The notes below the pieces were generated by a model. The model was not told the DNA's origin. It ran no database searches and worked only from the letters and a program-made list of their open reading frames with translations. A stretch of 63,738 nt of DNA, counting the filler, from Thraustochytrium aureum (Eukaryota): NCBI GenBank assembly GCA_012862495.1. It is 6 parts of 6 records of this genome, joined end to end, with 100 filler letters (N's around TTAATTAATTAA, not from the genome) between each part and the next. Parts side by side here need not be neighbours in the genome. Positions count along the whole stretch, not along the records: positions 1 to 8,858 come from BLSG01000042.1; 5 more parts are not named here. One strand, given 5' to 3'. Made by a program: the position numbers and the translations under genes. This document shows, in pieces, positions 1-61,335 of this stretch (position 1 is its first letter; every line of letters begins with the position of its first letter).

Positions 1-9
1 CACAGTGCA
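1..9 (+). repeat. Left terminal inverted repeat CACAGTGCA
   Basis: Exact reverse complement of 8847-8855; CAC...GTG termini are typical of CMC-superfamily elements. Confidence 0.78.
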
Positions 10-644
10 AGAAAAGGGGGGTATAGGGGGGCAGTTAGGCCCACCTAGAAAAACATCTTGGCGCACGGGAAATCAGTTGGGGATTTGGGCAAAATCTCCT
101 GGGGAACGACTTCGGAGCGGCTTTTCGCGCTTGCGAAAAGAAGTATAGCGGGGCCCGAAAGCCGTTTCGGCGCCGGAGCTGATTTGTTGGGGAATGCATT
201 TGGTGGGAGCTAAGCGCGGATTTGGGAGGACCCAAAACATCCCTGGGGATCGCGAGATCGCAGCTGGGGAGCTGGCTGGGGCGGCAGCGTTCGTTGACGA
301 AGCTGGGGCGGGCGAAAAGATAGTTCGGGAGCCCGAGAAACTTGGGAAGGGTTCCGCAGGTCAGGCGTCAAAGGGAGTTACGACAAGGTCGTCTCCGTGG
401 CGGCCTGTTGCGCGGCGTGGCGCGCCTTCTCTGTGCGCCACGGCCCCAATCCGAACCCAATTGGGTGTCGACAAGCGGCACTTGAGGACGGCAGCAGCGT
501 TCCTCGAGGTGCTGGTGCACGGAGCTCAACTTTTTCTGCCATGAGGGCTTGCCGCTTGCTTCAGACCCCAGCGTCTTCAGGCGTGCAAAATCTACCTACC
601 GCACAAGTTCTGGATGATGCAAAACGCAGATGGTATTTGGGTAG

Positions 645-3600
645 TTATGCACCACGCTTGCTCCTTTTTGCACTTCTGCCCTGACCAGCGCTGTCAGCTG
701 TTCTGTAGGACAGCTGCACAGGTTCGGCAGACAAGCCCGTGATGCCAGGCAGGACCTGGCCAGGGAGAACGAAAATCTTGGCTGACTGGAGCTCCACCCT
801 GCAAGCGAAGTGGTTGAAGTGCAGCCAGGCAAACTGCCTGGACCCGATGGGAATCCGATCGCGCACGACGCGCGCCATGGCCCAATCTCCGTTAAACTTG
901 ACCTGGATGTCCTGCACTAGCTCGCGCATTAGCGGAGGCATGAAATCCACCTCGGATGCCGAGCGCCATGGGACCTTCCGCCATTCGTTGTTATGCGTGT
1001 CGAAGATAGCAATGCTCATCTCTCGCACCCCAACGCGCCGGTTGTAAAACCCGAACTGGGCCTGGAGGACGTTGGCGCTTACAGGGACTCCCATCCAGTT
1101 GAGGGCCTTGGCTTCGTTAAGCGCAGTTGCAGACACGAGTTGATGGAATCCCGTTTCCTTCGAGTACCCGCATACTTTCAAGCACTGGAACTCTTGCCTG
1201 ATGCGGACGAACAAAACTCTGCCCAGCATGTTGGAGCGCCAAGACTCGCGCAACAGTGTTGAGCTCGAGAGCGGATACACGTCCCACTCCACCTGGTGAG
1301 GTGAGTCTCCATCCAGTGTTTCCGGGGCCGCTTGGAGCGAGAACGCCGCCGACGCTCGTGGAAAGGCCACAAGGTGAACGGCGCTACCCGCGTCTGGCAG
1401 CTTGTACGTGTAGAGTGGACGGAGTTCGCGCGCGTCCAGGAGCAGTGCCTCGCACGCGCCGAGCCTTACATGAACAAAGCAGTCCAGCGCTTCGAGCACC
1501 GTCGTTCCACCGCGGACGAACGCACGATTACGCACCGGCGCTTGAGGAATGCAAACGCAGGCTACATGCTCGTGCAGGGTACCGCTAGGTTGCCTGATCT
1601 GGACCGCCGCAACCATGAGGTACAGATTGCCGCGCACATCCCAGACAAGCGACGGCTGCCGGGCGTTGTACTCCCTTGTTTCCAGACCGCCCTGGCCTCT
1701 TCTACAGAGACCTCGAAGCGTGTGCGATGAGACGCCAGCACGTTTCACCTCCTTCAGGTGGGCCGCCGACGCAATGACGACCGAACAGTCTGTTGCTACA
1801 CCACTGAACAGGCGAGTCCAGTCCTCACCTCGCACCGCGGCGTCAGTTCGCTTTTCACCGATGACGTCGTGTGCGGTCCACCGCAGCAGGGCGTTGACCT
1901 CCTGTCGTGCGTCGCGGACACTAACTTCCATCACTCCGCCTGCAGCCTTCGCTTGGACCTTGGCTTGCAGCTCGCGCGGAGGCGTGGGCAGAGCTTCGGT
2001 GCAGCGCAAGACCATCGCATCACGCTCAATGGCGAGGTTCAAGATGTGCTTGCCCACGCCGCTCGCGTCTTTGTTGTTAAGTTGCCGTGACGGTCTCTTG
2101 CAATGCTCCAAATGCGCTTTCTCGAAAGCGCTGGTGTCCGTGGCGATGCCAGGGCCGCTCCTCTGCAGCGCCGCAAAAATGTGCCGCGTGCCGTGCTCTT
2201 TTATGGTTCGCACAGGTCCGGGGTTGCTGCCATTGGCGCTGCCCCGGGCAGCCTTGACAGCGCCAAATATTCCGACATAGAAGCGATCGAAAATGTCGTA
2301 CTCCATGAGCGCCGCGTCCACCGATGTAGGTGTTGGCTGCCGGAGCCGAGCGTAGTAGTGCAGCTTGAGCACCGACTGAGCGAGAAGCAGAACCGCCTCA
2401 AAGCCCTCGATAACCTGCAGCACTGGGTGGGGCTCGTCCACGATGATTTCCCTGTACCACAGCGCCACAAAGCAGCGCAAGTACTCGCTCCACCATTTCG
2501 CTTCAACGCGCGTGAGCAAGTTGCGCGATGGCAACAGCCTTGCTAGGGCAGCGCACACGTTCTCTTGCGGCTTGGTGAGCGCTTTTCGCTTCATGCGCTT
2601 ACCCAGCGCGTGCATCGTAGCAGGGATGCTGCCGGAAGAGCTGCCAGCAACGTGGAAGGCAAGCGTAAAGACGTCTTTCACGATGCCCGAGTCGATGGTG
2701 TGCATCATGTCGAAACCGAAGAGCTCGTAGGGGTTGCGCAAACGAAAGTCAAGCGAAGTCTGCAGTACGGCGTTGAGCTCCCCAGCCTCGCAATGCATTT
2801 TCCACTTGCTTGTAAAGTACTTGCCGTGCGCAGCACGGTTTGGGCCTGGTGCCGTCGCCGTTGACCACGCCTCCTTCAAGGTCCTGAGTGACTTTAGCGG
2901 GCAGCCGAGCGCGAGGTTGCCGGCCTCGCCTTCGTCTTCGACCGCCCGGCTCCCGCCTTCGCGGAGACGGGCAGTGCAGAATCTGCAGTTATAGCCAACG
3001 CAGCCGGCCTGCGTGTTTGCGTCCTTATTGTCCGCGATGCAAGCGCTGAGGTTCACGAGGTACCTTCGCCGCGTGCCGTCCCCCGCGGTCATGCAGAGTC
3101 CGCCTTCCAGTACCGCGACACGCTGCGCAACAGCGATGGCTTCAAAGACGCAAAGGAGAGCGGCTTGCTTTTCCCAACGAGCAAAGCGGCGCGGGAGGTC
3201 CGACGAGCTTGTCTTCTTTTCCAGCTTGGTGGTCACAAAGTAGCCAATAACGCTGTGCGACCGGTCCTGCTGCCTTGCCAAGGCGCCAGTGTTACCCACT
3301 TGCATCAGGATTGGGCACATCGTCCGCCCGCTAAAGCTCACCACGGTGTCGTCCTGGAAGACGATGAGTGAAAGCAGCTCGGCGTCGCTGATGGCGCGCT
3401 CATTCGCCTCAAGGATTTGGACCCGGTTTTGCACGTTGTTGCATTCCGCTGCCGTCTCCGCCACGTGCCTCGCAGAGGCGACTGCTGCTGCCTTCTCAGC
3501 TGCAAGCTGAGCGAGCGCGCGATCGCCGCTGGTCAGGTCGTCAAAAACGCGTACGCCGCCGTGGCCGACGAATTCCTCCACCCGCGGCAGAGCGCCGAAG

Positions 3601-4820
3601 TCCTTGCAAAGCTCCGGCCGCGACAGAAGAGCGTGCGCAACAGCGAGCACGTCCCGCAGGACGAAGGACTTGTGGGAGCCGATGTTTGGATCCCCAGCGT
3701 TGCGAAACTCTTCTGGGACCTCGACTCGAAACTCAGTCGTGAAGCCTGTATAGTCACAGGTGTCTTGTCGAAGGTGCTTTCGAAGAGTCCGTGACAGGGA
3801 TAGGTTCTGGCGGCGGTACTCCCTCGCCTTTGCAGCTGGGTCGAAGATGTTGTGCAGCTTGGCAAATTTGCGCAAGACCGACTCTGTCGTGCGGGATACG
3901 GCATCATACGTCTCAAAGGACCCGCCAGGCGTGATGATGTCCTCGTAGAACTGCAGTTGTGGCTCGGAAACGTGACGCTCGAGCCGGCTCTGGGCGGCTC
4001 GGCGCATTTCGTCAAGCGTGCACTCGCCGTTCTGCACCCACCGCCGCCGCATGACACACTCGTAGCCCGCGATGTCTAAGCCCGCGCCGCGGTTCAATCC
4101 TGCTGTGGCAGTGGAGGCCTCGTTGAGGAAAACGACTGGTGATGCCACATGACCGTCGTTCGAGTCTCCGGAACCAAAGAGGTCGGCCTCGGAGCAAGCA
4201 GCGCCGGCTGGGCAATCCTCCTCGCTCCCAACCACCTCAAGGCTGGTGTCGCTATCCGCCTCTTCCGCGTGAAAGTCGATCGCCGACTCGCTCGAGCTGT
4301 CGGACAACTCTTCGCCAGCCCCGTCGCACTCCCCAACATACTCGAGCTCGTCCGTCTCCCCTTGTCTGGCGCCATCTCCTTGCGGCACGTTTTGGGGTCG
4401 CGCTTGCAGAGGCGAATCACCGAGCATGGCGCTTGGGCAGCTCGTAGGTGCACCAGGGAGCGCGCCAAAATCTGGGGCCGGCTTGTCGCTCCTTAACGGA
4501 ACGCCATGCTCGGCGCGGAATTGAAACCGCCTCTGCGAGAGCCAACGCGAAGTCGGGCTCGCAATCGTCTCGAACGCGGCGGCACCACGAGTTGAATCAT
4601 GGCCGACATCGAAGTGCCGGAAAAGCCGCGCGTAACCACCTGCGTCCGCTGAAAACGACGCCCGACAACTTTCCACAGGACAGCGAACGTAAAGCCCACC
4701 GCACCTCCTGATGCTCTTCTTCACGCAACCGAGTTGTGGGTGCGGGTGAGAGCGCCGTTGCTTGGCGCCGCAGAAGAAACAACCCCAGGGGTCGCACCAC
4801 ACGTCCACTTGGAGCGACAT
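645..4820 (-). CDS. Plavaka-like transposase (N-terminal C2H2 zinc finger, RNase H-fold core, long C-terminal extension)
   Basis: 1391-aa uninterrupted ORF. Motifs: CPVESC...RHFDVGH (C2H2), VFDDLTSGD, LIVFQDDTVV...CPILMQVGN, VIGYF, IADNKD...CRFC, FDMMHTIDSG (DxxH), IKEHGTRH, TDTSAFEKAHLEHCKRPSRQLN (ExxH...K). This order matches Plavaka transposases. Confidence 0.82.
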   Translation of the reverse strand: MSLQVDVWCDPWGCFFCGAKQRRSHPHPQLGCVKKSIRRCGGLYVRCPVESCRASFSADAGGYARLFRHFDVGHDSTRGAAAFETIASPTSRWLSQRRFQFRAEHGVPLRSDKPAPDFGALPGAPTSCPSAMLGDSPLQARPQNVPQGDGARQGETDELEYVGECDGAGEELSDSSSESAIDFHAEEADSDTSLEVVGSEEDCPAGAACSEADLFGSGDSNDGHVASPVVFLNEASTATAGLNRGAGLDIAGYECVMRRRWVQNGECTLDEMRRAAQSRLERHVSEPQLQFYEDIITPGGSFETYDAVSRTTESVLRKFAKLHNIFDPAAKAREYRRQNLSLSRTLRKHLRQDTCDYTGFTTEFRVEVPEEFRNAGDPNIGSHKSFVLRDVLAVAHALLSRPELCKDFGALPRVEEFVGHGGVRVFDDLTSGDRALAQLAAEKAAAVASARHVAETAAECNNVQNRVQILEANERAISDAELLSLIVFQDDTVVSFSGRTMCPILMQVGNTGALARQQDRSHSVIGYFVTTKLEKKTSSSDLPRRFARWEKQAALLCVFEAIAVAQRVAVLEGGLCMTAGDGTRRRYLVNLSACIADNKDANTQAGCVGYNCRFCTARLREGGSRAVEDEGEAGNLALGCPLKSLRTLKEAWSTATAPGPNRAAHGKYFTSKWKMHCEAGELNAVLQTSLDFRLRNPYELFGFDMMHTIDSGIVKDVFTLAFHVAGSSSGSIPATMHALGKRMKRKALTKPQENVCAALARLLPSRNLLTRVEAKWWSEYLRCFVALWYREIIVDEPHPVLQVIEGFEAVLLLAQSVLKLHYYARLRQPTPTSVDAALMEYDIFDRFYVGIFGAVKAARGSANGSNPGPVRTIKEHGTRHIFAALQRSGPGIATDTSAFEKAHLEHCKRPSRQLNNKDASGVGKHILNLAIERDAMVLRCTEALPTPPRELQAKVQAKAAGGVMEVSVRDARQEVNALLRWTAHDVIGEKRTDAAVRGEDWTRLFSGVATDCSVVIASAAHLKEVKRAGVSSHTLRGLCRRGQGGLETREYNARQPSLVWDVRGNLYLMVAAVQIRQPSGTLHEHVACVCIPQAPVRNRAFVRGGTTVLEALDCFVHVRLGACEALLLDARELRPLYTYKLPDAGSAVHLVAFPRASAAFSLQAAPETLDGDSPHQVEWDVYPLSSSTLLRESWRSNMLGRVLFVRIRQEFQCLKVCGYSKETGFHQLVSATALNEAKALNWMGVPVSANVLQAQFGFYNRRVGVREMSIAIFDTHNNEWRKVPWRSASEVDFMPPLMRELVQDIQVKFNGDWAMARVVRDRIPIGSRQFAWLHFNHFACRVELQSAKIFVLPGQVLPGITGLSAEPVQLSYRTADSAGQGRSAKRSKRGA

Positions 4821-6140
4821 GTGTCGCCCTTGTCGGCGCTTTCTTCGTCGGAAGCCAGAGGGTCGTCACGGTTGCGCTCGCTTGGATTGCAATTTGCAGG
4901 CCGAGTTCTCTTCCACCATGCGCTTGTCGCGTCGTGCGCTTCCGCGCTGCGCTGTGCTGAGCAGGATGCGGGATGCGCTGAGGTGCGTAACGTTGCCAGT
5001 GTGCCGTGGCGAGCCGAGCGAGCTGTGCCGCGGCGCCGTGCGCTATGCGCGGTTCTGAACACTCCAGCTTGAGGGAGAGTTCGTCTGTCACCCGGAAAGT
5101 CAAGAGGAAAGTTCGAGGAAGACGAATGTCNNNNNNNNNNNNNNNNNNNNNNNNNNNNNNNNNNNNNNNNNNNNNNNNNNNNNNNNNNNNNNNNNNNNNN
5201 NNNNNNNNNNNNNNNNNNNNNNNNNNNNNNNNNNNNNNNNNNNNNNNNNNNNNNNNNNNNNACAGAGGACGCACCTTTCGAAAATGGTGGGGTAGGTAGT
5301 AAATAGTTTAGGCATTATAAAAATAGTACCGAAAATTAAATTAATTGTCCGATTAAGCGAAAATGTGATTGTATTGTTTTAGATACCCATGGGATTGTGA
5401 TTGAGGTGAGGGCGCCCTGGGGTGAGGGCTAGGCAATTGTATTTCACGGGGATTTCAGGATTAATAATCTTACCTATAAGTCTGAGAAGATCAGCCGAGT
5501 ATAAGGAAACCTGTTGTTGGCTGCTCCTGCTGGTGCTGCTGCTGTTGGTAGTGTTCGCAAGGTTTAAAACTCAAATTTGAGCGGCAAAAGGCAATTTAAG
5601 AAAAGATCACGGCACCTTCCTAAACAAAATATCTACTAGATATCTGTGAAGAATGTGCGCGGTTTGGCCCCTTTGCCCCTTTCAGTCCACCGCGCAACCC
5701 TTTCCAGACCGACCCAATTGAATAGTGACGCCCCTATGTTCAAGGTGAGCGGCAGGATCTGTGCAGAATCTGCCGACCCTGGAGCAGCAGAGCCGCAACC
5801 AACCCAAGCAGAAGCGAGAAGAGGAGGGGGCAAGAGCGCCGTCGTGATCTCGCGGCGGCGGGAACAGCCAAAATCATGGCGCTCCGCCGCCACACTGACA
5901 GGCTGCCAGCGCAGACTCGACTCAGAGGTGCAGCGCCGCCGGCGGTTCCAGAGAGCGAAATGCCGGAGCGCGGTCGTGAAGGTCCGGCAGCGAGAACACG
6001 CAACTTGAAGGCCAGCTTGGCCACCGTGACCGCGCATTGCTGGAAGGAGTCCAAGCCTGGCCATCCTTTCTACTAGTAGTCGTGGGCACCTGACTGTAAG
6101 TGCAAGCTCTTCACGGCAAACCCCAATCAGCTCGGCAGTG

Positions 6141-6277
6141 CCAGCGCGGAACCAGGCTAGCAGTACCAGCGCGGAACCAGGCTGACCAGCGCAGCCCCAA
6201 GCGGGGCAAGCCTGAGCGGCGCAAGCAACCCGGAAGCAGCAGCGCGGGCGCAACCAGCTCCAGCGCGGAACCAGGCT
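6141..6277 (+). repeat. Three copies of the 18-mer CCAGCGCGGAACCAGGCT inside the transposon
   Basis: Copies at 6141-6158, 6166-6183 and 6260-6277. A separate 15-bp tandem (CGTGACGTGGGGCAC) lies at about 6412-6447. Confidence 0.8.
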
Positions 6278-6458
6278 GCAAGTAGCACCAGCAGGCAGAG
6301 CGCGTCACGAGGAGCATCAGGCAGCGACTGGCAAGTTGGCAGTTGGACCAGATAAGTTTAGTTGCCTACTCACCAAACGTCGTGCTCTGGCCGACCGGTC
6401 GTGACGAGGAGCGTGACGTGGGGCACCGTGACGTGGGGCACCGTGACGGGCAAAATTC

Positions 6459-8418
6459 TTGGCAGCGTATTGGCAGGGCTGGCCACTGCGGGAAGCCCGA
6501 GTGAGCGCGCTCAAGTTGACAGACGCGAGCCTCGAAGACCGCGAGCGCGCAGGAGGCATCTGGACGCACGGACGAGCCGAGAGACAAAGGCGCCGTCAAG
6601 CACAGAATAGCAATCTCGAACGAATGCTCCTCGAACCTACTTCGAGTTTCTCGAGCACGCCCCGCAGCACATCGAGCGATGCGGATCTAAGTGCGAGCCC
6701 AGCTTTCTATGTGCTTATTGGCTGGTTGCAGATGCTCGTGGCTCGGGGCGGCGAAACAGGCGTCGAAGGACCCGTTTCTGGCAAGGTGCGCAGTCCCTAC
6801 TCCAAGGCGCTTGAGAGCTTTTTGTGGCTCATCAACTTTCAGAACGCCTTTCGCCGCAAAGCCTATGCCACCTGCCAATCCAATGACGCCAACGGAGTGG
6901 AGGCAACCGGCAAAGCGGATGCGCAACCCACGCCGCGGACGTTTGCCGATCAAGTCGGGATCCCCATTGCCACCGAGATCCTGATAAACTTCGGCGGCCT
7001 TAGCGCGGCGACGGCAGCCGCGCTTTCGTACAAGTGCGAGGATCAGTTGACGCAGTCCGGCAACGCCACCCCCGAACCTGAAGATATTCAAAGTATCGAG
7101 CAATCAATGCATACCGAGGGGGTCAAAATTGCTCGCGAGTGCATCATCAAGACATGCTGGTTCTTGTCTTGTGGTCTGGTGGCGCTTCGGGAGGTCATCA
7201 ATAACTTCAAGTACGAGCACGACCGGAAGGTGAAGGAGCGCTTGGCTAAGGCTGTCAAAGGAAAGACCTTGCACGCGCTCCTCCGAGCTGTTGTTGCCGG
7301 TCGTAGCGACAGCAACGTGCCCGACGACGAAGATGTTCTGCACCGTTTTATGGGCTTTCACGTGGATCCCACAAGCCATCCTGCGGGACAAGAGTCTCAA
7401 TCTGGGAGTGCGAGACATGGGCGATGCAAACGCAACGAGGAGCTGATCAACAAGTTCCCATGCAAGCACGCGGAGAGCCTTGAGGGCAACAGGTGCTTGC
7501 TGCACATTGCTTTCGGAAAGCGGGAGAACCCGACAACGGGAGAGTCGATCGAGGTGACCACCAGGGAACAGGAGAGCAGATTTCGCGACGACGAGTCCCA
7601 GGCCACTTCAGAGTCGGAGGACGATGATCACCTAGCTGCGGCTGTGTCTGGGAAGCGGAAGGCGTCGTCCATGAGCTCGCAGTCTACGACGGTGAAAGCT
7701 CTTCGGCTGGAGTTGCCCTCGACGCCGCCCTGCTCGGCGGAGAGCCCAGGCGGGCAAGAGCCGATCTCAATCGATTCTGGTAAGTCTGTTCACGGCCCAC
7801 GCGATTTGCCCCAGATGTCTCCTCAAACTGACGCATCCGGGCTCCAGCTGAGGAGCGCGACCGAGCCATCGCTGCCTACTATGGACTCATCGCGTACGCC
7901 GCGGGGGCCGACAACACCGGCTTCCTGTTGCCTCACATGGGCCAGAGCCACGCCACCATAAAGAACCTCGAGGACACTTTCCCGCCCCGCTACCAGGCAA
8001 GTCTGCTTGCGCAAGCCGCCTCTGTGCTTGCCGAGCACTCTTTCACCCAAGGCCAGAGCTCGCGAGTTGCATCTGATGCAATGGCCTGGATAAGTGATTT
8101 GAAGCTTTTCCCTGGCCGTGCTGAAGGCGCGAGCACCCTGGTCGACGTGGTGCAAGCTCTCGACACCCTCTCGGTGAGTTGCTCAGGCTCTGGCCCCGCT
8201 CAAGTTTGCCAGCGTAGCCGCTCCGGATTGCCTCCCAACTGGACATCAACAAAACTACCGGCGCCGTGGCCATGGACTTCATCTACAGCTTGAACCGCTG
8301 AGCGCACCTAGGCTCGCGTGACCGCCCAAAGCCGGACCATGCCCAAGTTGGAAGCGTGCACGACCGCACGCTGCGTGCCCGAGCAGCGCGTGCAGGCGCT
8401 CGAGCGCCATAGCTAGAT
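6459..8418 (+). CDS. Second transposon ORF, unknown function (accessory/TnpA-like candidate); 3' part frameshifted
   Basis: 500-aa ORF 6459-7961 with protein-like helical composition, continuing in overlapping frames 7928-8293 and about 8339-8418. It lies inside the TIRs, divergent from the transposase across an AT-rich spacer (about 5290-5640). Start is uncertain (first ATG about 6624). Confidence 0.55.
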
Positions 8419-8620
8419 AGATAGAGGACAGCAGTCCACTACAAGAAAAAGAATTTAGCACAACAAGATCTCGAGTTCCGCTGGCCAGCAGTCCATTTCG
8501 GCCGCCCCAACCTCGAAGCTTTGGGGGCGCCCAGCTGACTGTTTTGGCCACCGACCTCCGTCCGCGAAGCCGCTTCTTCGGAAACCCCAAACGAAATCCA
8601 CGGAACCCATGGATAAAGTC

Positions 8621-8786
8621 TGGGTGCTGTACCCAAATTTTGTGGGGCGAGTTGGGCCCCAAATCCACAAGGATCATCTCGGAGTCCTAAACGGCGACCC
8701 CAGAAGACCGTTTGGGTGCTGTACCCAATTTATTTCGAAAAATTCAGGCCCGCTATCCAGAAGCAAGTTTGGGTGCTGTACCCAAA
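8621..8786 (+). repeat. Subterminal quasi-palindromic repeat TGGGTGCTGTACCCAA x3
   Basis: Copies at 8621, 8713 and 8770, each with TGGGT...ACCCA inverted arms, within 250 bp of the right TIR. Confidence 0.85.
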
Positions 8787-8846
8787 TTGCGAGGGAAACT
8801 GGCCTGGGCCAGCCCAGCTGTTTTCCCGATTTTCCGAAAAAGCCTG

Positions 8847-8855
8847 TGCACTGTG
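8847..8855 (-). repeat. Right terminal inverted repeat TGCACTGTG
   Basis: Reverse complement of 1-9; followed by only 3 nt (ACG) before the linker. Confidence 0.78.
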
Positions 8856-8858
8856 ACG

Positions 8859-8958
8859 NNNNNNNNNNNNNNNNNNNNNNNNNNNNNNNNNNNNNNNNNN
8901 NNTTAATTAATTAANNNNNNNNNNNNNNNNNNNNNNNNNNNNNNNNNNNNNNNNNNNN
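8859..8958. other. Artificial contig-joining linker N44-TTAATTAATTAA-N44
   Basis: Six-frame stop linker at 8903-8914 inside a 100-nt spacer. Confidence 0.97.
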
Positions 8959-14591: not shown

Positions 14592-16515
14592 CTCGCCTGC
14601 GCTCGGTTCTCCCGCGGCGCTCCTTCCCAGCCCCGCTCACGCATGCACGCCCTGACAGCCGGCTTTCGCCCACATCGACAAACTGCAGTGTGCGAGCGCC
14701 CAGGGAACTGGGCCTTGTGCCAGGCGCAGCGCTGCGCGTTCGCAAGCAATCTCACCCCTGTTAGACCCTGGGAAGCTCTGCAACGCTTTGNNNNNNNNNN
14801 NNNNNNNNNNNNNNNNNNNNNNNNNNNNNNNNNNNNNNNNNNNNNNNNNNNNNNNNNNNNNNNNNNNNNNNNNNNNNNNNNNNNNNNNNNNNNNNNNNNN
14901 NNNNNNNNNNNNNNNNNNNNNNNNNNNNNNNNNNNNNNNNNNNNNNNNNNNNNNNNNNNNNNNNNNNNNNNNNNNNNNNNNNNNNNNNNNNNNNNNNNNN
15001 NNNNNNNNNNNNNNNNNNNNNNNNNNNNNNNNNNNNNNNNNNNNNNNNNNNNNNNNNNNNNNNNNNNNNNNNNNNNNNNNNNNNNNNNNNNNNNNNNNNN
15101 NNNNNNNNNNNNNNNNNNNNNNNNNNNNNNNNNNNNNNNNNNNNNNNNNNNNNNNNNNNNNNNNNNNNNNNNNNNNNNNNNNNNNNNNNNNNNNNNNNNN
15201 NNNNNNNNNNNNNNNNNNNNNNNNNNNNNNNNNNNNNNNNNNNNNNNNNNNNNNNNNNNNNNNNNNNNNNNNNNNNNNNNNNNNNNNNNNNNNNNNNNNN
15301 NNNNNNNNNNNNNNNNNNNNNNNNNNNNNNNNNNNNNNNNNNNNNNNNNNNNNNNNNNNNNNNNNNNNNNNNNNNNNNNNNNNNNNNNNNNNNNNNNNNN
15401 NNNNNNNNNNNNNNNNNNNNNNNCGAAGCACGTCTACCGCACGGTCAGGTCCTGGAAGGTCCTCTCGCGTCCTGCAGCGCCGTGCCGCGATGGAGGCCGC
15501 CGTCCTTGCTGCTCTGCGTCTTCCTTCCTGACGCGCCATACCGGTCATCTCCGCGCCCCCCTTTTTCCTCGCTTTAAAACCTCCCGAAATATACACTTTA
15601 CATTATACACCGATATTACCGACAGGCGTCCTTGGGGGGCACACGGCTACGCTGTGACGCAATTGGGGGTAGAGTTACGTACATACGCTCGCTCGCTTGG
15701 GGTGAAAGGGGGGTGAAAGGGGCGTGAAGTGACGCGATGGGCCCACTCGTGATGGCTGCAGCTTGTTTGTACAAGGTATTCAAGAGTCACCCGCTGCCCC
15801 TCATGGCCCCAGTCCCTGTGAGGAACGGATGTAACTCTTGAACAAGTGCACGTAACTCTTGAATGGTAGCACGGAGCGAGCAGTGAGGGGCACCCCTCTG
15901 AAACCGCCTTTCCGAGTGTGGCACTTGTCGGGCTGCCTTGCACTCTTGAACAGGATCGGCCAATTCCCCGCCTCTCGGCAAAACAAACGAGAGCGAGAGG
16001 AGTCAAGGCCTCCATCCCCCTCTATAAAGCAAGGTTTCCTTCACTAACGGACAATCCGAAACAGTCTCGGTGAATCTTCGCAAGTGTGAATAGCGACTTT
16101 CTTCCTGCTTTCCTCCTCACAAGGAGTACCCACCCACCTAGAGTACTTAGAGGTATACCTTTCCATTGAGTGAGTGTGGCAGGACACACGTGCTGTTGGC
16201 GAAGCAGAGCAGCAGCGCAGAGCAGCACGGAGCAGAGCAGGGCAGAGCAGCGCAGGACAGGGCAGAGCAGAGCGGCGAAGCGCGGCGCGGCGCCGGTCGA
16301 GCGGCCGCAGGCGTCTCCCTGCGAGCCCGCCGGAGCCCGGGCTCGCTGATCCTGGTTTGGCGGATTTTGCTGTCGTTTTCCTGGATTCTGCCACTCCAGC
16401 CAGGCCTCGTCAAGCGCGCGCGAGCCTGACTGACGGGGCTGACTGACGCTCGCGCGCGGCGCGGAGCGGCAGCGCGCGCCTGCCGCGAGCGGATGGGGCC
16501 GCGGGCAAGGCTGGG

Positions 16516-18390
16516 ATGGCCAACGGGAGGCACGAGGAAGCGGCCGCGGACGATGGGCAAGTCTCGACGGGAAAGCCCAGAGTGCTGGCCAAGCACAGTG
16601 TGTCATTCTCCGCGTATGAGCTCAAGAAAGAACGCGGAAATGTGGGGAATTCCGCAGACAAGGCCAAGACGCCAAGCCTGGCCAAATTTCTGTCGTCGCC
16701 GCCGAAATACGATGCCAACTTCACCGTCGGAACACCAGACCCAAAGTTTGTCATCGAGTCCAAGCTGTACCAGGCGAAACTGAGGCGCGAGCAGGAGAGC
16801 AGAGACGCGCAGCTCCGGGAGCGGGGCAAAGTGGAGGACACGGAAATCGTCGAGTCAGAGGTGGAGGCCAGCAGTCAAGGCGATGCTCGCCGTCTGGGAG
16901 CAGCTGCCAAAAGCCAAGCCGCTGCCGCCGCGGCCGACCAAAGCGGCAAATGCCAGTCCGGCGGCGGGCAAGCCCAAGCCTCCGGCCGGCGACAATCCAG
17001 AGACAAGCGGGCCGAGCTCGGCCAAAATCGCTGAAGGAAAACAGCGACGGTCGAAGCAAGCAAGTGACTCTCAGCGCCAGCCAGGCGGCGGCGCATCGGC
17101 CTCACTGATCAGCTCCCGGAAGAGCAAATCGCCCAGAGAGGGTCCTCCTGCCGAAGCCGCCCCACAGTCGGAGTCGCTAGGTCGAACCTCTTCGTGGTGG
17201 TCGCTCTTGTCCTACGTCACCGGCTTCGGGAGCCAGGAGGAAGGGGAGAAGGATGACCAGAGCGGCGCCACTGACTCTCGCGCCGGCCCTGAACCAACAA
17301 AAGACAAGCCAAGGGACCCCCAAAAGACAAGCCTAAGGATTCCCGAAAGGGCAAGCCAGAGGAAGCCAAACGAGTTGAGCCCGACGAGGCGACTCGACCT
17401 GGACGCGCCAGATCCTCGCAAGACGCGAATGGGCTCACCAAGTCTTCGCGCTCAAAGAGCAGGAAAGGCTCCGTTTCCCTCGAATCCGAGTCGGTGGTCT
17501 CAGGACGATCGGCAACGTCCTTTACGACAGCCCGGTCGCAAAACAGCGAGCGGCGTGACAAGGGCGTCTCGCAACGATCTGGCAAAGGTGACGGCCGAGC
17601 GTCGGGCCACGACGAAGAGCGGGACTTGCTCGAGACGAGCTCCTTCCGTACTGCCAAGTCGGGCAAGTCCAAGTCTTCCTCCAAGACAGCCAGGAGCTAC
17701 AAAACAACTCGCACGTCCGCGACGGACAAGTCTGCGTCACGGCGCACGAGGCGGGCGAGCAGCGCGGAAGACGCCTTCCTTGATGGTTTTGAGACCGGGT
17801 CGTTCATTACCGTCGCGAGCGTGCTCACGCGCCAGTCTCACGACAGCCGCAAGCTGCCATCTTCGAAAGCGGCAATTCGGCGTGCGGCGAGCTACTCGAT
17901 CGACTCGACAAACACGGTTGATGATGACCTCCTTGACAAGAGCTCCCTCTTTGCCATTGGCTCAGCGTCCGGGAAGCGCGAAAGGCGCCGCATGCGCAAG
18001 ACGCGCGACTCTCTCGACTCGCTCGACGAGCTGGTCAAGGCGGCCGCGGTCGGCGTCGCCAAAGTGACCAACAAGTCCTCGAGCGCGGCGTCATCCAGCA
18101 GAATGCGCCTCCTCCCGGTCGAGGACGATGACTTTGCCTCTGTCAAGACGAGCCGGAGCGGGAGGAGCGGCAAGAGCTCCAAGAGCGGCAAGTCGTCACG
18201 ACCTACGAGAGGCCGTAGCGCCGTCCGCGGCGGCTCCGTTGACGCCCTCGACGGCGAGATCCTCAAGTTGACCAAGGGCACAAAGTTGCGCTCAAAGCGC
18301 TCGCGGCAGCCCCAGGCCCCCAAACGCCTTGCGAGCGACTCGCTCGACACCCTCGACGGGGAATTGCTTGAGCTGCTTCCAGCTGCGTGA
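16516..18390 (+). CDS. Hypothetical Ser/Lys/Arg-rich low-complexity protein (split across frames)
   Basis: Overlapping ORFs 16516-17034, 16883- and 17494-18390 with similar composition; repeated SLD(S/T)LDxEL motif in the last part. Confidence 0.5.
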
Positions 18391-18554
18391 TCTACAATAC
18401 AGGAGATCGGCTCGACGAAGGGGCGCAAAGACAATTAGTTTGATGAACAGTTACTTTTTTTAATTAAAATACCTTGCGTAGGCCTACTCTTTTGCTGGCT
18501 GACGCACCACTGGCCGGCTCAGCCGGGCCGCGGCAAGCCAAAGGCAACCCCGAC

Positions 18555-20580
18555 TCACAGCAAAACCTGGCGCTGCTCGCAGTCGAACGCGAGTACGCGC
18601 AGCACCGCGGCTGCAAGAGCCACATGGTCCACTGCAAGCGACGCGTAGCGCGCAAAAACCTGCGCCACAGCTTCCTGCCTGGCGCGGGAGATGTAAAGCC
18701 CAGGCCGGAGGCGCCGCGCGTCCAGGATAATCGCGCTGGCCATGCGCGGCGGCAGCGTTGGAGCATCTATATTGTTCCCGCGCAGGTCGAGAGTGCGCAA
18801 GGTGTTGTTCATTGCGAGGCCGTCGAGCAGCACGCTCAGGGGCGCCAGCACTTGGCGGCCCTCGTGCTTGCGGCGTGCCGGGAGCGGCTTTGAAGGCGCG
18901 CAGAGTGCCAAATCGCGCAAACCGAAGACGCGAAGGGAGCGAGTCGCCGCGAGCATTTCCGCGATTGCATGCACGCATGCAAGTGCCTCCTCCGGTGTGG
19001 CGGCGCGAAGGCGGTTCCCGGACAAGTCCAAGTCTGCCAGGCGGTACAGCCGACCGAGTCCGCCAACCGCTGTCGCGATGCTAGCCAGCCCGGCGTGCGA
19101 AAACCCAACATTTGCGAGCCCAAGGGATCTAATCCCTCGGTTGGCCTTGAGAATCCGCGCCAGGACCAGCACCCCACCGTCTTCTATCCTGTTGCCGTCG
19201 AGGCTGAGCTCCTGGAGCCCGCGGTGAAGCGCCAGGCTTGACTCGAGGACCCCTATGGAGCTGGCGCTCAAGTGGTTGCCCGCGAGGCACAACTTGCGCA
19301 GCCCGACGCACGAGCAGATCATATGCGATAGGGAAAAGGCACTCCGGTGCGTAAGCTTGTTGAACGAGAGGTCGACGTCGACAAGCGAGCTTTTAGGGAC
19401 GGAGAACCCGTGACCTGAGACAAACGCCTGGAATACTGTGTCGCCCAGCCCGTTGCGCGACAAACTGAACGCCTCAAGGAGGGGCAGCGTTTTTATAGAG
19501 CTCGAGAGCAGCACCGCGACTTGGGCGAGCTCTTCGTAGACAGGCCTGCCGGCGTCGTCCATGCGCTCCCAGCGACCGCGAGCGATCCAGTTCCCGGAGA
19601 GGTCCAGCCGTCGGAGCTTCTGGCACCCAGCTTTCACAGCCCTCAGCAGTGGCTCGAGATCCCCGGCAACCAGACCGCACTGCGGTACGCCAAAGTCTAA
19701 TAGCTCTGTCTGGTGAACCAAGGGCCGCGGCCAGTGCTTCTACGGCAGACTGCTCGCCGCGCTTGGACCGGAGCCCGACCGAGCGGAACCGGAGCGTGCG
19801 CGCACTGGTGAAAACCTCGAGCGCTTTGAGCAGGCCCAGCCGCTGGCCGGCCCACGAGTCCCGAACCTCCAGCTCAAAGACGCTGTCAAAAGACTCGACC
19901 CTGTGAAGAAGCGTCTTGAGGGGCCCCCCGCTCATTGTGCGCGCAAGCTCTTTCAGCGCCGTCGCTTCAATAGTCCTCTGCTGGTTGCGCGCGAGGCGAG
20001 CGGCTGTCTCCTCTTCCTCTCGGATGCGCCGCTGCATCTCCTCGACGAGATTCCCCACGCGGACCGCTTCGTGCCGCGACCGAACCATGGATTGGATTTT
20101 GGTGGCAGCCGCGACGCGCTCGGCGTGGCGCGCGCGCCCTGCAGCTTGTCGCGATGCGCTCACAGCGACGTAGCGCTCGATCAGGTCGTTGCGCATCTTC
20201 TCTTTGTATTGCAGCGCGTTCGCGCGCGTGCTTGCCTCGCTAGCGAGCGCGAGACGCGGGATGAGCCCGACGCGGGGCAGCGTGCCGAGCTCGCTCCGCA
20301 AGTTCACGACCGGCGGCAGCTCCTCAGACTCCGGCGCTGCTGCGTGTCCGCTGCGAAGGCGTCGCATCTGCTCGGCCTGCAGCTTGTTCTGCAGCAGCTT
20401 TTGCCTGCCCCGCTTCATCTTGGCCGCCTTGGCCTTGTCCGCTATCTCGCGTCGCCTTGCCTCTTGCTTGTCGCGCGCCGCACGGAGCTGCATGATCTTG
20501 TGCTTGCTCTCAGCGCCATCGCGATGCGCTCCGCTCACGTCTTCCATCGGGCCGCGCATTGTCGCGGCGCCAATGGCCAT
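18555..20580 (-). CDS. IQ-motif plus RNI-like leucine-rich repeat protein (frameshift near 19720)
   Basis: IQ motif AATKIQSMVRSRHE and coiled coil, then LRRs (LRRLDLSGN, LQELSLDGNRIEDGG, LADLDLSGN, LRTLDLRGN); ORFs 19474-20580 and 18555-19721 overlap. Confidence 0.8.
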
Positions 20581-21520
20581 CCGGGACGCCAGGCCGGTTG
20601 CCCGTCTCGCGCGCGAAGGTGCACCAAGGACATTTGCACTCTACCCGAAGTCCGATGCTCAACGGATCTCTCGACCTCGACGGAGTGTGCACCTTTGTCT
20701 ACAGAGAGCGAACGACACGAACGCGCTCGCTGTCTGCTGCGGCGACCGTCCTCGTGAGAGGATGGCTCTCGACCGAGCGACAGAGACCCTGAGGCGCTGG
20801 GACGACCCGGGTCACGACCGAGATCCTTGTGGCGCTGGCTCTCGAGCTCCGTAGACTGCACAGGACGACGACGACGATGTTGTACTTAGCTAGCTCTAGA
20901 GTGCCAGTGCGCAATTCTGCTGTGGTTGTGACAACCGCCAGTGTGCAGTCCACGTGCACGAGCGCGCAGCATTGTTGGACACAACACTTGCAAGCAAAGG
21001 ACTTTGCAACCAGTTTGAAGTTGGACACAACTCGTGCAAGGAAAAGAAGGCCTGTGCCAGCCTCATCAGGGGTCATCAGGGGTGTTGGACTCGGAAAGGC
21101 TTGCAGAGTCTGCTCGGACTCGGAGGCGGGCGTCTTCAACTTGGAGACGTTGTTCTCTTTCAAGATCAATCAATCAAAAGTTGTTGCAGTTGCGTCGAGT
21201 CAAGGAAAGGCTTGCGGGCACATCAGCAGCATCTTGCGAGACCAATGCATCAGTCGACCTGAAGGGCGTCTGACACTGTTCAAATTGACAGTGATTAGGC
21301 CCAACTCGCGGGGGCTCGATCGCCGTCAGGTGATTTCGCTCGCAGTGCGACAGAAAGGCGGGCCTCCACGACGAGACCACGAGGTATCATGGGCTGCGGC
21401 GGTGGAACCTGTCCAGCAAACACGCATCAGTGGGCAGCCCGAGTGGAAAGTGAAACGACCTAAGGCGCTCGAGAACACCACCAGCTTGACAAGCAAAGCC
21501 GCGAGGGGTCACGAGGGAAG

Positions 21521-24500
21521 ATGGGCACGGCGTCACATGCCTCGAATACGTCCGTCACGGACGAGGAGGGCGGCAAGGTCGAGTTTCTGATCGCCCGCGG
21601 CGAGCGACTCGTAGTTGCAGAGATGGTCGCCAAACAGTTCGTTCGGCGACCGCGGGTCTGCCTAGCATCGTGGTGGCTTCTCATCCTGGGCCTGACAGGT
21701 GTCGCTATCGCTGCCGGATGGCTCAGCATTGGCAACCTGGGAGGGCGAGACTGGATTGTTGCATCCAGCATCGAGTCTGAACGACTTGACGCACTCGAGG
21801 ACGCCTTTGATCGGCTCGACATCAACCAGGAAGACAAGTCACAGACAGAACCTCGCAGTCGTCCGAGCGCGACCAGGTCGGTGCAGATCCTGCTGGAATG
21901 GGAGGACGAAGGGCGAAAAGAGGCGGTCTTTACACCTGCCAATATCCAGGGCCTCTGCAAGTTCGAACGTGTGGTGCGTCGCTTGCAAAACTTCACCAAG
22001 TATTGCCTCACAGACGAGCCTCGTGGAACAGAGACAAAGTGCAAGGCAGGGGCGACCAACCTCGTTGGCTACTTTTACCAGACAACGGAGGCGCAGGACG
22101 CATGCGATGCAATCGATCCGGCAATTTTCCAGAGTGCGCTCGCGCTTGCCATGCAAGAACCAAACTTGGTGGCGTTCTTCGTTTCCGGCAGCGACCAGGA
22201 AACCGGTGTCGCGGTACGGACGCGATCCGAGGTCCTGATTGGCTTTCCGCTCGGCTCTGACACCACGGGCGATACAAGCCTGGACGACGACGTCGTTGGC
22301 GGCTTTTACGAGCCGTTCACCGACGAGATGGAAGAGGCCCTCAAGGAGTATTCTGGGCTAAAAGGAAGCTTTTTCAGCAGCGCCTACAACACAGGCGGCG
22401 TTTCCATTGGTGGCGGGGCGCGTGTTCGGTACTTTAGCTACTCGTTTGGCGACAACGAGTTTGGCAAACTGGTAAACAGCGACCAGGTGCTCGCCAGCGC
22501 TTCTGCGCTCCTGGTTGGAGTCCTCACGTACTGGCACGTGCGTTCGCTGTTCATTACGGTAAGCGCGGTGTTCGGAATCCTCTTCTCGGTTCCAGCCGCT
22601 CTCGTCGTGTACACTGGCGTGTTTGGCATCCACTACTTCAACTCGATCCACATTGTAACCGTCTTTCTCGTCCTTGGCATTGGCGCGGACGCCATCTTCG
22701 TGCTCGTCGACGCCTTCAAGCAATCAGCAACGAGCTGGGTGCACATGCGCGGCCTGCGCTCCGCGGTGGAGGCGGAGAGGGCTAACAAATACGGCACTGG
22801 TCGCGCCGAGACCGAGATCCTGATCGCTCGCCTCGCGTACTCGTGGCGGCGTACCGCAATTGCCGTGTTCAACACCAGCATCACCACCTGCTTGCGTTTT
22901 TGGCGACCGGGGCCTCGCCCGTGCTCCCGGTCTCGGGCTTTGGGTACTTTGCTGCTGTCACAGTTATGGTTGTCTACGTTTGGTCGCTGACCCTTTTCCC
23001 AGCTATTCTCGTGGTCGACCACCTCTTCTTTGCGCGTCGCCCATTTTGCTGCGCTTGCTTGAGAGTAGAGCGCGTGAGTGCTCCAGATGCTATGGTCGCG
23101 GATCGCGACGCGGCAGCCGCTGGCAGTGGCTCGTGCGAGGAGCGAGTGTTCACGGCGGCCTACATCCCGGCCATGAAAGCGAAAACCAACATCGGAGCGC
23201 GCTCGGTCCACTGTCTGGCGTGGGCCTGTGTGCTGACGCTGGTGGCGTTCGCGTGCTCAATGTTAGTTTTTGCCACCAAGCTGTCGACCCCAACCAAGCC
23301 GGACGTCTCCTTTTCCAGCAACCACATGTTCGCAGGCTTCGAGGACGACTACCAGAAATTCTCTGCTGGCGAAGGACGCTTTGCCGAGCCCTTTCTCGTC
23401 TTTGGGATTGCTGGCATAGACCGCACTGGCTACAACCGCTGGTTACCCTCGAAGAACTTGGGCTCGGCTGTTTTCGACGCAGGCTTTGATTTGGCTCCGC
23501 GCGGGGCACAGCAGTATATGCTGGACCTCTGCGATAGCCTTGAGGGGCTGACTTGTATCCCGGAAGGCGCAACCAAGCGGTTAGAAGGNNNNNNNNNNNN
23601 NNNNNNNNNNNNNNNNNNNNNNNNNNNNNNNNNNNNNNNNNNNNNNNNNNNNNNNNNNNNNNNNNNNNNNNNNNNNNNNNNNNNNNNNGTTGGCAACGTC
23701 GAGTGCGTCCTTCGGGAATTTCACGAATGGCACGCGGCAGCGTTTCCGGGCGACATCCCAGCCCTCGAGTTAGGCGAGGTCAACCCAGCACAGTGGTACG
23801 GCCGCCTCAAGGCCTTTGCGCGCAACAGTACGCGTGCTGCGGCCCGTGTCGGCGTGATCAATGACGAGGTCAAGTTTTTCGTCATGAGCTACGAAACGAG
23901 CCTGACAGAGTTTCGCCCGGAGCAAATCAAGGCTCCGGTTCTTGAGCTTTTGGAAGCTTGGTTCCAGCGCGAGTCGGCCAAGGCGCCTGCGAGCTTGCGG
24001 AGCTTTTTCCAGACCAGCATCGACATCGTGTGGATCGTCACTGAGCAGGGCATTGTGCAGGGCATTTTCACAGGACTCGGGATTTCTCTCCCGTTCGCCT
24101 TCCTGGTGGTCCTTGTCGGGACCTCCAACGTTGTCCTTTCGCTATTCGCTGTCATCTCTATCGTATCCATCGTCTCCTTCGTGCTGGCCTCAGCGTACCT
24201 CTTGGGCTGGAGCCTCGGAATCGGCGAGGCGATCGCTGCGGTTATGGTCGTGGGCTTGTCCGTCGACTATGTGCTTCACCTCGGCCAGGTGTATAGCCAC
24301 GCGATCGAAGAGGGTCACCACACATCGCAAGAGAGGTTTGAATACACTGCGAAGGTGATGGGCCCAACGGTGGTTGCGGCAGCGGCAACAACTGCGCTCT
24401 CCTCGTCAATCATGTTCTTCACGCAGCTCGCTTTCTTCAGCAAAATGGGTGCTCTCATCGTGCTCACCATAGTGGGCTCGTTCGTGTACAGCGTGTTTTT

Positions 24501-24609
24501 CTTCCTCCCACTCTGCCTCCTGCTAATGAGCGACGATCCGTCATTTGGCAACTGGGTTGAGTTCCTGCGTACTGTTTGCTCCAAGCCATCGAGCAAGGGC
24601 CTCGAATGA
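21521..24609 (+). CDS. Dispatched/Patched-like RND-family membrane protein with sterol-sensing domain (frameshift near 22890, small gap)
   Basis: Two TM bundles with GIGADAIFV and GLSVDYVLH (GxxxD) motifs, NTSITT, MGPTVVAAAATT, and two large extracellular loops. Confidence 0.9.
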
Positions 24610-25141: not shown

Positions 25142-25241
25142 NNNNNNNNNNNNNNNNNNNNNNNNNNNNNNNNNNNNNNNNNNNNTTAATTAATTAANNN
25201 NNNNNNNNNNNNNNNNNNNNNNNNNNNNNNNNNNNNNNNNN
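25142..25241. other. Artificial contig-joining linker
   Basis: TTAATTAATTAA at 25186-25197 flanked by Ns. Confidence 0.97.
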
Positions 25242-27232: not shown

Positions 27233-28140
27233 CTAGCGGGTGTGCTCGGCTGTGCTCTCCGTCGCGGGCGGCCGAGTCCAGCGCGATTCGCGCGTCTTGA
27301 TGTTCCAGTAGTAGACCTTGCCCGAGGGCGCCACGGCCTGGCGCCACTCGCCGGCGAGGTTGGGCGACTCGGCCTCGATGTCGATCCAGCTCAACTTGCC
27401 CTGGAAGAGGTCGTCCCTGCTCAACTTGTCCAGCGTCGAGATCTGGTTGCGCACATAGTCGGCCATGCGGTACACGCACTCGTCCGGGGTCTTGGCATCA
27501 GACTGGTAGATGTTGCGCCAGATCGCAGAGCCGAGCTCCAGGTTCTCGTCGTCTGCGATGTTGAGCCCGTGGTCGTACGAGACCGCCGACGTAAAGCAGG
27601 ACTTTTGCACCTGCGCCAAGTGCTTGTTCACCGTCAGCTCGTGCACCCGGTGCTTCGGATCCTCCGCGTCGTGTCGTCCCAGAGCGTGTCAAACAGGGTC
27701 TCTTGGAGGTCCTTGCCGTGTTCGCCTTCCACCAGGAGCCGCCGGTGGACCATCCACACGTGCAGCATCAGCAGCTGCTGTCTCACCTGAAAGTTTTTAG
27801 TGTCATAGTACTCGAATTCGAGCCCAAAGCTCTCGTCGTTTGAGACGAGGATGCTCTGCTCCTCGCAGCTGCGGAATAGCGCTTGGCCCGTGCGAATGTC
27901 TGACGACTCCTTTCCGTAGTACCCCAACAGCCTCAGCAGCCAGTCCCACCGCTTCAAGAACACGTTGCGTTTCTCTTTCACCGGGGCGGCCTCCTTTATT
28001 CTCGCCTTGCCCGTCTCCCCCGCGTGGCCTTCCCCAGTGGCCAGGCCCCGGGCGCCGCCGCCTTTCGCAACAAGTTGCGCCCAGCCGCCGACCGTCGCGG
28101 CCCGCCACTCCCCGGCCGGCTCGGGCCACTTGGCAGAACC
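27233..28140 (-). CDS. CBP3: Cbp3/UQCC1 ubiquinol-cytochrome c reductase chaperone with a C-terminal WW domain (frameshift near 27645; 5' end in gap)
   Basis: QLLMLHVWMVHRRL, LFDTLWDD, SYDHGL, LGSAIWRNIY, MADYVRNQ; WW domain GEWRQAVAPSGKVYYWNIKTRESRWTRP. Confidence 0.85.
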
Positions 28141-38525: not shown

Positions 38526-38625
38526 NNNNNNNNNNNNNNNNNNNNNNNNNNNNNNNNNNNNNNNNNNNNTTAATTAATTAANNNNNNNNNNNNNNNNNNN
38601 NNNNNNNNNNNNNNNNNNNNNNNNN
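38526..38625. other. Artificial contig-joining linker
   Basis: TTAATTAATTAA at 38570-38581. Confidence 0.97.
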
Positions 38626-59954: not shown

Positions 59955-60054
59955 NNNNNNNNNNNNNNNNNNNNNNNNNNNNNNNNNNNNNNNNNNNNTT
60001 AATTAATTAANNNNNNNNNNNNNNNNNNNNNNNNNNNNNNNNNNNNNNNNNNNN
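59955..60054. other. Artificial contig-joining linker
   Basis: TTAATTAATTAA at 59999-60010. Confidence 0.97.
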
Positions 60055-61235: not shown

Positions 61236-61335
61236 NNNNNNNNNNNNNNNNNNNNNNNNNNNNNNNNNNNNNNNNNNNNTTAATTAATTAANNNNNNNNN
61301 NNNNNNNNNNNNNNNNNNNNNNNNNNNNNNNNNNN
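61236..61335. other. Artificial contig-joining linker
   Basis: TTAATTAATTAA at 61280-61291. Confidence 0.97.

Follow-up and report, generated by a model that had tools for sequence, protein, structure and literature searches.

In this study we describe a transposon at positions 1 to 8855 of a 63,738-nt window of Thraustochytrium aureum DNA (assembly GCA_012862495.1), the window being the whole stretch that was analysed and along which all coordinates count. Within the element, positions 1-5130 are called the transposase half and the remainder the gene-2 half. We consider it probable that this is a complete, low-copy member of the CMCT clade (EnSpm/CACTA, Plavaka, Chapaev, Transib and RAG1), likely autonomous, recently active and likely moving by cut-and-paste. 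Directly observed were the CAC..GTG ends, half-sites repeated near both ends, an open frame with DDE and C/H motifs, an about fourfold contig depth and a spliced second gene. Within the clade the element appears, from its sequence, to stand between EnSpm and Plavaka and to represent a poorly sampled lineage.

Ends and overall structure

The terminal inverted repeats (TIRs) that the original prediction had proposed were recovered as perfect 9-bp repeats. The 9-mer CACAGTGCA occurs exactly twice in the 63,738 nt, once at each end of the element and in opposite orientation (Table 1). When one mismatch is tolerated, the window yields 20 matches where 16.6 are expected, which is chance level; hence it is the position of the repeats and not their length that counts as evidence. 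The contig was confirmed to begin exactly at the left TIR and to stop 3 nt past the right TIR, before the assembly linker. The termini read CACAG..CTGTG, in agreement both with the 5'-CA..TG-3' termini of the CMCT clade and with the CAC..GTG termini of EnSpm/CACTA elements.

Subterminal repeats had been predicted as well, and they were found at both ends. A 20-mer is present in three copies near the right end (none in 100 of 100 shuffles), each copy being a palindrome of the form TTTGGGT-N5-ACCCAAA. The half-sites CCCAAA/TTTGGG number three in the left 350 nt and seven in the right 350 nt, where 0.19 would be expected from host DNA, and four in the inner 8,024 bases. Direct as well as inverted subterminal repeats, as in EnSpm/CACTA elements, are thus present, and hairpins at the ends are mildly above shuffles (z -2.6 and -2.2).

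That the element is complete had been claimed too, and this part stood with one correction, a run of 131 N at 5131-5261 inside the element that had been overlooked. One 9,223-nt contig of the public run X1 covers 1-5130 and 5266-8858 with only 5 letters in place of the gap, and because this single contig spans both halves they belong to one element of about 8,736 bp. The X1 contig also reaches 483 nt to the left of the left TIR and 1 nt past 8858. Two bases are absent from the window, one after 8233, which is present in all four public runs that we compared, and one after 8484, which is present in three of the four; both are likely homopolymer errors of the window.

It could be argued that the true ends lie further out, for example as a 12-bp TIR that includes the three bases after 8855, with the left end clipped by the assembly. 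These three bases are indeed common to the window and X1. However, a contig of run X2 departs from the window after 8856, the window begins exactly at CAC, and CAC is the standard terminus of the clade (Kojima 2025, PMC12730594; here and below, published work is cited from the parts of its text that were available). We regard ends further out as very unlikely.

The element yielded no Rfam match, and no second copy or family member was found elsewhere in the 63,738-nt window. Scans with the end motifs gave 0 matches in metagenome contigs and 0 in prokaryotic genomes. Their sole match, in the viral contig L001, is an isolated 18-mer without further similarity and was put down to chance. Between the two divergent genes lies a spacer that is likely to act as a bidirectional promoter; its stretch 5262-5807 has 46% GC, compared with 57-64% elsewhere in the element.

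The transposase and the second gene

The uninterrupted 1391-aa transposase of the original prediction was borne out by a minus-strand frame of 1391 codons without stops. It matches the Pfam family PF18759 (Plavaka) over aa 466-716 with an E-value of 8.2e-19 and 68.4 bits against a gathering cut-off of 26.3, and no other Pfam family matches it at E up to 1. In the ESM Atlas its best feature matches are Plavaka clusters (0.95). Alignment with six relatives places the catalytic triad at D490, D597 and E900, and the zinc-binding-type motifs of the CMCT clade are present as C612xxC615, DMMH707 and H876xxxH880. In the same alignment the second Asp, D597, sits in a motif of the D-N/T-K-E type; D-x-P is usual at this position in EnSpm and Plavaka, and D-x-K in RAG1 and Transib. 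Near the N-terminus a C2H2-like motif was recognised by eye (C47, C52, H69, H74), followed by an acidic linker, and the C-terminal ~450 aa carry no domain assignment.

Few relatives of this protein were found. With an E-value limit of 0.001, only six of 1.84 billion cluster representatives matched; their identity to it is 23-25% where BLAST aligns them (284-630 columns) and 17-22% in the alignment of the relatives. The sole relative with an organism name is Hondaea fermentalgiana GBG29895.1 (P0004), the others being P0001-P0003, P0005 and P0006. Five of the six share the region of the D-N/T-K/M-E-type motif together with CRxC. The Plavaka profile is matched by 6 of 8 aligned members, Transposase_21 and DUF4218 by 0 of 8 at E up to 10. 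In GBG29895.1 the first two catalytic residues are replaced by G and N and a long tail of unrelated sequence follows, so that it is likely a dead copy adjoining a host gene or a mis-joined gene model. The tail resembles a membrane protein and gives a weak match to Mlo (E 0.0017). PDB sequence searches with the transposase gave no match, an exact look-up of the transposase and five host proteins recovered 0 of 6, and no relative was seen in scans of metagenome contigs, viral contigs or prokaryotic genomes for related loci. A word-index homologue search was blank, also when started from the alignment of relatives, and such blanks carry no weight. On sequence, the transposase would belong to a thinly sampled group with the D-N/T-K-E motif that is Plavaka by score and has EnSpm-type ends.

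Structure models of the transposase were of low confidence, with a predicted local distance difference test (pLDDT) of 36 from the single sequence and 46 from an 8-sequence alignment. With the latter model RAG1 chains ranked first in Foldseek (E 0.026), and in VIA-align the stretch 1-237 of the model, which corresponds to aa 361-597, was superposed on residues 534-708 of mouse RAG1 (Z 6.8, root-mean-square deviation (rmsd) 4.9, 147 aligned; against 4wwx Z 7.6, rmsd 4.6, 148 aligned). This alignment ends with D597 opposite RAG1 708, that is, D708, which we take to be a catalytic residue of RAG1. The Foldseek and VIA-align scores for RAG1 lie under the tools' own thresholds and are used as a consistency check only. 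Since to our knowledge no CMCT structures other than those of RAG1, BbRAGL and Transib have been solved, these three would head any fold search of this kind. The top VIA-align rows were generic helix bundles on a low-confidence part of the model and were disregarded; a viral fold library gave nothing for the model at E 0.001.

The model, such as it is, raises the question of a Transib/ProtoRAG-like element with ends like recombination signal sequences (RSSs) and with gene 2 as a RAG2-like partner. RAG1 heads the fold search on that model, the D-x-K at the second Asp is reminiscent of RAG1 and Transib, both ends begin with CACAGTG, and the first 7 nt of the left TIR are thus identical to the consensus heptamer of the V(D)J RSS (PMC1131882). 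At the right end the Transib nonamer is matched at 6 of 9 positions at spacers 12 and 23. This match is within chance (p about 0.095) and the left end reaches at most 3 of 9, so that an RSS 12/23 architecture receives no significant support. Moreover, the profile match is to Plavaka, gene 2 gives no kelch or PHD match, and Transib elements are 3-4 kb long with transposases of about 700 aa (PMC1131882), whereas element and protein are larger here. A Transib/ProtoRAG-like element is in our view highly improbable.

The second divergent gene had also been predicted correctly. We found it to be transcribed and spliced on the plus strand, because two GT..AG joints are present in X2 that are missing from the X1 DNA contig. 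Its product has 533 aa as the window reads and about 536 aa with the extra base after 8233. Tandem repeats were noted in this region, a 25-nt repeat at 6135-6189 inside intron 1 and a 15-nt repeat at 6412-6448. Searches with the single exons of gene 2 returned nothing that reached the threshold in Pfam, PHROGs, NCBIfam, PDB or the ESM Atlas, nor was a relative seen among viral contigs. Specifically, there was no kelch or PHD match in Pfam, PDB sequences or the ESM Atlas, and no TnpA domain in Pfam. It shows no similarity to the tail of GBG29895.1 and no clear membrane span, and TET, SET or methylase cargo was not detected in the element. Provisionally gene 2 is therefore an orphan, the two large protein collections having been queried with the transposase alone.

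As to its function, gene 2 is most likely a helper borne by the element. It is possible that its product binds the ends or acts as a regulator, in the role that TnpA has in CACTA elements. It might, somewhat tentatively, be regarded as a passenger, and we think it unlikely to be an anti-silencing factor like other Plavaka/EnSpm cargo.

Table 1. Features of the element, with window coordinates and the basis of each call.
Feature	Position	Strand	Basis
Left TIR CACAGTGCA	1..9	+	9-mer count in window
Left subterminal region, CCCAAA/TTTGGG half-sites at 84, 221, 231, palindrome 221-236	10..350		half-site count
Intronless 1391-aa DDE transposase	645..4820	-	open frame; X2 pieces from 349 to 4690 without splice joints
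Spacer between divergent genes	4821..5807		GC profile
Scaffold gap of 131 N, real gap near zero	5131..5261		bridged by X1 and X7 contigs
Gene 2 transcript contig, 2,537 nt, long leader	5808..8509	+	X2 contig
66-codon upstream open reading frame in gene 2 leader, plausible start context	5876..6073	+	frame reading
GT..AG intron in gene 2 leader	6096..6194	+	joint in X2, absent from X1 DNA contig
Gene 2 first coding exon, ATG at 6624	6624..7779	+	frame reading
GT..AG intron in gene 2 coding sequence	7780..7847	+	joint in X2, absent from X1 DNA contig
Gene 2 last coding exon	7848..8301	+	frame reading
Right subterminal region, seven half-sites and three 20-nt repeats (8619, 8711, 8768)	8505..8846		half-site and repeat counts
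Right TIR	8847..8855	-	9-mer count; X2 contig departs from window sequence behind 8856
Right flank, three bases, candidate half of a target-site duplication, unconfirmed	8856..8858

Copies, flanks, age and host

The public runs compared (X1, X2, X3 and X7) were selected because they contain the element; of 15 listed runs, 11 have at least part of its left half. X2 is an RNA run by guess, no listed run being on record as RNA. Depths and difference counts were taken from contigs among the pieces listed (for the host, the 8 longest of 48 X1 records), and element and host were compared at different likeness thresholds (85 and 90).

The earlier suggestion of a multicopy repeat was supported by contig depth in X1, although the copy number is low. 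The element has a contig depth of 19.2, compared with a weighted mean of 4.72 for the 8 listed host contigs (3.6-5.1), a ratio of 4.07. In X3 the element is covered in 30 of 30 bins and the host in 12 of 30; in X7 the figures are 24 of 30 and 3 of 30. We read this as an element in few copies, at about two to four loci or more, with contig depth as a crude measure. A 32-nt X1 record directly past the right end has a depth of 5, which is the single-copy level. In X2 a single contig with a depth of about 3.4 agrees with the right end as far as 8856 and then runs on into 192 different letters; this alternative flank suggests that the element is inserted at a second site as well, and it locates the end close to the TIR. 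X2 covers both genes of the element.

The transposase half is far less diverged between the runs and the window than host genes are: 2/5130 against 33/7588 differences in X1, 1/4365 against 31/2661 in X2, 1/1213 against 22/1345 in X3, and 40/2312 against 26/421 in X7. This suggests that the spread of the element is younger than the divergence of the host strains.

Several observations weigh against a recently active element in several places. The alternative flank is one low-depth contig from a run whose RNA status is guessed, no target-site duplication (TSD) was read, and no empty site was seen. In X1 the contig continues without interruption for 483 nt beyond the left TIR but for only 4 nt beyond the right one, which tip-clipping at 5x depth or a repeat larger than the element can explain. 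Contig depth is a crude copy measure, and the runs were preselected and the thresholds unequal. In the gene-2 half the differences from the window amount to 16/3593 for X1 and 16/1966 for X3, close to what host genes show, although X1, X2 and X3 agree with one another in several of these letters, so that the variant may be on the side of the window. In X7 one nucleotide of gene 2 is deleted at 7171, and among the listed transposase changes of this run 6 of 13 are synonymous versus 25% at random, too few to show selection.

Some of these data would also fit an old single insertion inside a larger block that is present in about four copies by segmental or tandem duplication, in which case the element need not be mobile. 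The unbroken X1 contig left of the TIR and the three flank bases common to X1 and the window are what such a block would give. Against it stand the limits of the window contig at the two TIRs, the single-copy depth directly past the right end together with the other right flank in X2, and the lower divergence of the transposase half compared with host genes. We hold a duplicated block to be improbable and prefer a mobile element at a few loci.

The window consists of six scaffolds with the joiner N44-TTAATTAATTAA-N44 at 8859-8958, 25142-25241, 38526-38625, 59955-60054 and 61236-61335. Since the linker joins separate scaffolds, the genes that follow after 8958 do not adjoin the element. They include an ERGIC-thioredoxin fusion, MetH (B12-dependent methionine synthase), SH2 and Roc-COR proteins and an EF-hand/cyclic-nucleotide (CNG) channel, mostly as long open frames with about 60% GC. 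The gene set looks non-fungal, in line with the protist host of the original prediction, and is presumably unlike that of higher fungi. Together with the Hondaea relative of the transposase it makes a thraustochytrid-like stramenopile the probable host.

A few further observations concern these host scaffolds. Compared with the public runs there are one-base indels at several places in 15718-21159, which suggest homopolymer errors here too, and some apparent frameshifts in the host genes at 16883-18067 and 21521-24609 may be assembly artefacts. The same host genome appears with low depth in X1, X2, X3 and X7, although these runs carry the labels of three different organisms and of a runoff metagenome; a common associate or a contaminant of cultures would be expected to show this pattern. 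A host protein at 27803-30667 (minus strand) has two inositol polyphosphate kinase stretches in tandem. The 828-aa product of 31527-34013 (minus strand) is a protein kinase with a coiled region at its N-terminus. Its C-terminus is rich in Cys and His and, as judged by eye, resembles RING/IBR, whereas the Pfam match is to the kinase only. An intronless protein at 48023-49390 (plus strand) combines repeated SH2/Cbl-type SH2 domains with a tyrosine-rich tail in a non-animal protist, and 60204-61235 (plus strand) is a fragment of a Roc-COR (Roco) gene.

Mechanism and place among known systems

From what is known of the clade, the most likely course, a cut-and-paste transposition, can be outlined. 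The AT-richer spacer would drive both genes outward. The transposase, perhaps via its N-terminal zinc-finger-like motif, would bind the subterminal palindromes, pair the CAC ends, cut next to CAC and excise the element. Insertion would then create a short target duplication of 2-5 bp, most likely 3 bp; duplications of 3 bp fit EnSpm, of 2 bp Plavaka and ESTA, of 4 bp Chapaev and of 5 bp Transib. Gene 2 might help by binding the repeats as TnpA does, or by countering silencing as proposed for other cargo.

The basic mechanism of such elements is already known, and the relevance of the present one is for specialists in transposable elements. Its frame is open, its transposase lacks introns, its copy number is low and it seems to be expressed, so that excision, TSD length and a helper role of gene 2 are open to direct testing. 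It also illustrates that a Pfam Plavaka match does not predict Plavaka-type ends, which bears on the border between EnSpm and Plavaka. A more far-reaching proposal is that the element stands for an undescribed, still-transposing labyrinthulomycete CMCT lineage that combines a Plavaka-like transposase, a D-x-K of the RAG1/Transib type, RSS-heptamer ends and a new orphan spliced helper. We think this rather unlikely; if it were true, the branch that lies between EnSpm/Plavaka and Transib/RAG could be studied on a living model without introns, and thraustochytrids would have a mutagenesis tool of their own. In the literature that we searched (Repbase and subscription journals lying outside the search), we found no report of such elements in labyrinthulomycetes or other stramenopiles; the available portions of PMC12258536 and bioRxiv 10.1101/2021.09.26.461848 name no such stramenopile element, and those of the published Plavaka accounts contained no demonstration of transposition.

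The CMCT clade is defined by a DDE triad, C/H motifs, 5'-CA..TG-3' termini and TSDs of 2-5 bp (Kojima 2025, PMC12730594). In the same source the termini and TSDs of PlavakaA and PlavakaB are defined, with TGT..ACA for PlavakaA and CATCA..TGATG for PlavakaB, so that the original prediction is not supported where it calls Plavaka boundaries poorly documented. Its view of Plavaka as mainly fungal has likewise been overtaken: complete elements with defined ends are in print from the red algae Bostrychia and Chondrus (bioRxiv 10.1101/2025.02.11.637652), candidates from green algae and moss (bioRxiv 10.1101/2025.10.09.681428; PMC13519894) and repeats from Amoebidium (bioRxiv 10.1101/2024.01.08.574619). 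The Plavaka type itself was upheld by the transposase profile but not by the ends. Compared with PlavakaA and PlavakaB of Agaricomycotina, our element shares the profile match, the DDE triad with C(2)C and H(3-4)H, and a size in the range known there (about 6-9 kb); it differs in its CAC..GTG ends, a perfect TIR of only 9 bp, a non-fungal host and no detected TET/JBP cargo.

It might be possible that we are dealing with an ordinary member of a curated group in an unsampled host, either the CAC-ended EnSpm of Repbase or what is called "EnSpm of the Plavaka lineage" in red algae, so that no new lineage would be needed. This would agree with our preferred reading on mechanism and differ on classification, and we give it a good, if slightly less than even, chance. 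Kojima placed under EnSpm those families that resemble Plavaka but have CAC..GTG ends and 3-bp TSDs, and the fungal rust family EnSpm-3_PSt and three ESTA families start with CACAG (PMC12730594); the Bostrychia paper ranks Plavaka as an EnSpm lineage (bioRxiv 10.1101/2025.02.11.637652). On the other hand, Transposase_21 and DUF4218 are matched by none of the aligned members and Plavaka by most, none of the few matches among the cluster representatives is named fungal or algal, and TET, SET or methylase cargo is missing from what was detected. The rust EnSpm elements of the EnSpm-3_PSt type are like ours in their CAC..GTG ends, a Plavaka-similar transposase and a second gene, and unlike it in carrying TET/JBP dioxygenase cargo; a 3-bp TSD is known for them, and no close sequence match between them and our element was found. 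The red-algal Plavaka elements are likewise complete and non-fungal, with accessory genes and inverted-repeat arrays. However, they are 17-19 kb long, mostly degenerate and of very high copy number, with three accessory genes (unknown, methylase-SET and ParB-2OG oxygenase), whereas the element described here has 8.7 kb, an open frame, about 4 copies and one orphan gene. Activity has also been reported for fungal CMC elements whose ends are CACTG and CACGG (bioRxiv 10.1101/2025.05.19.654958).

Finally, the layout of the two genes had been likened to that of CACTA elements, and this comparison did not hold. The CACTA TnpA and TnpD are overlapping, alternatively spliced products of one contiguous transcript (PMC8195511), whereas the genes here lie head-to-head and gene 2 lacks a TnpA domain. 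Plant CACTA/En-Spm elements resemble ours in CAC ends, a short TIR, subterminal repeats in both orientations and two products, and differ from its divergent genes and intronless transposase; neither Transposase_21 (TnpD) nor Transposase_24 (TnpA) gave a Pfam match in the element at E up to 10. With Transib and RAG1 it shares the heptamer-like ends and, in the low-confidence model, an RNase H core that weakly aligns to RAG1 534-708; its protein is much longer, and no significant nonamer and no RAG2-like gene were detected. The nearest sequences to the transposase, GBG29895.1 of Hondaea and five unnamed proteins, are uncharacterised. Taken together, the element agrees with the CMCT clade in all features tested, and departs from PlavakaA and PlavakaB in its termini and from plant CACTA elements in its gene layout.

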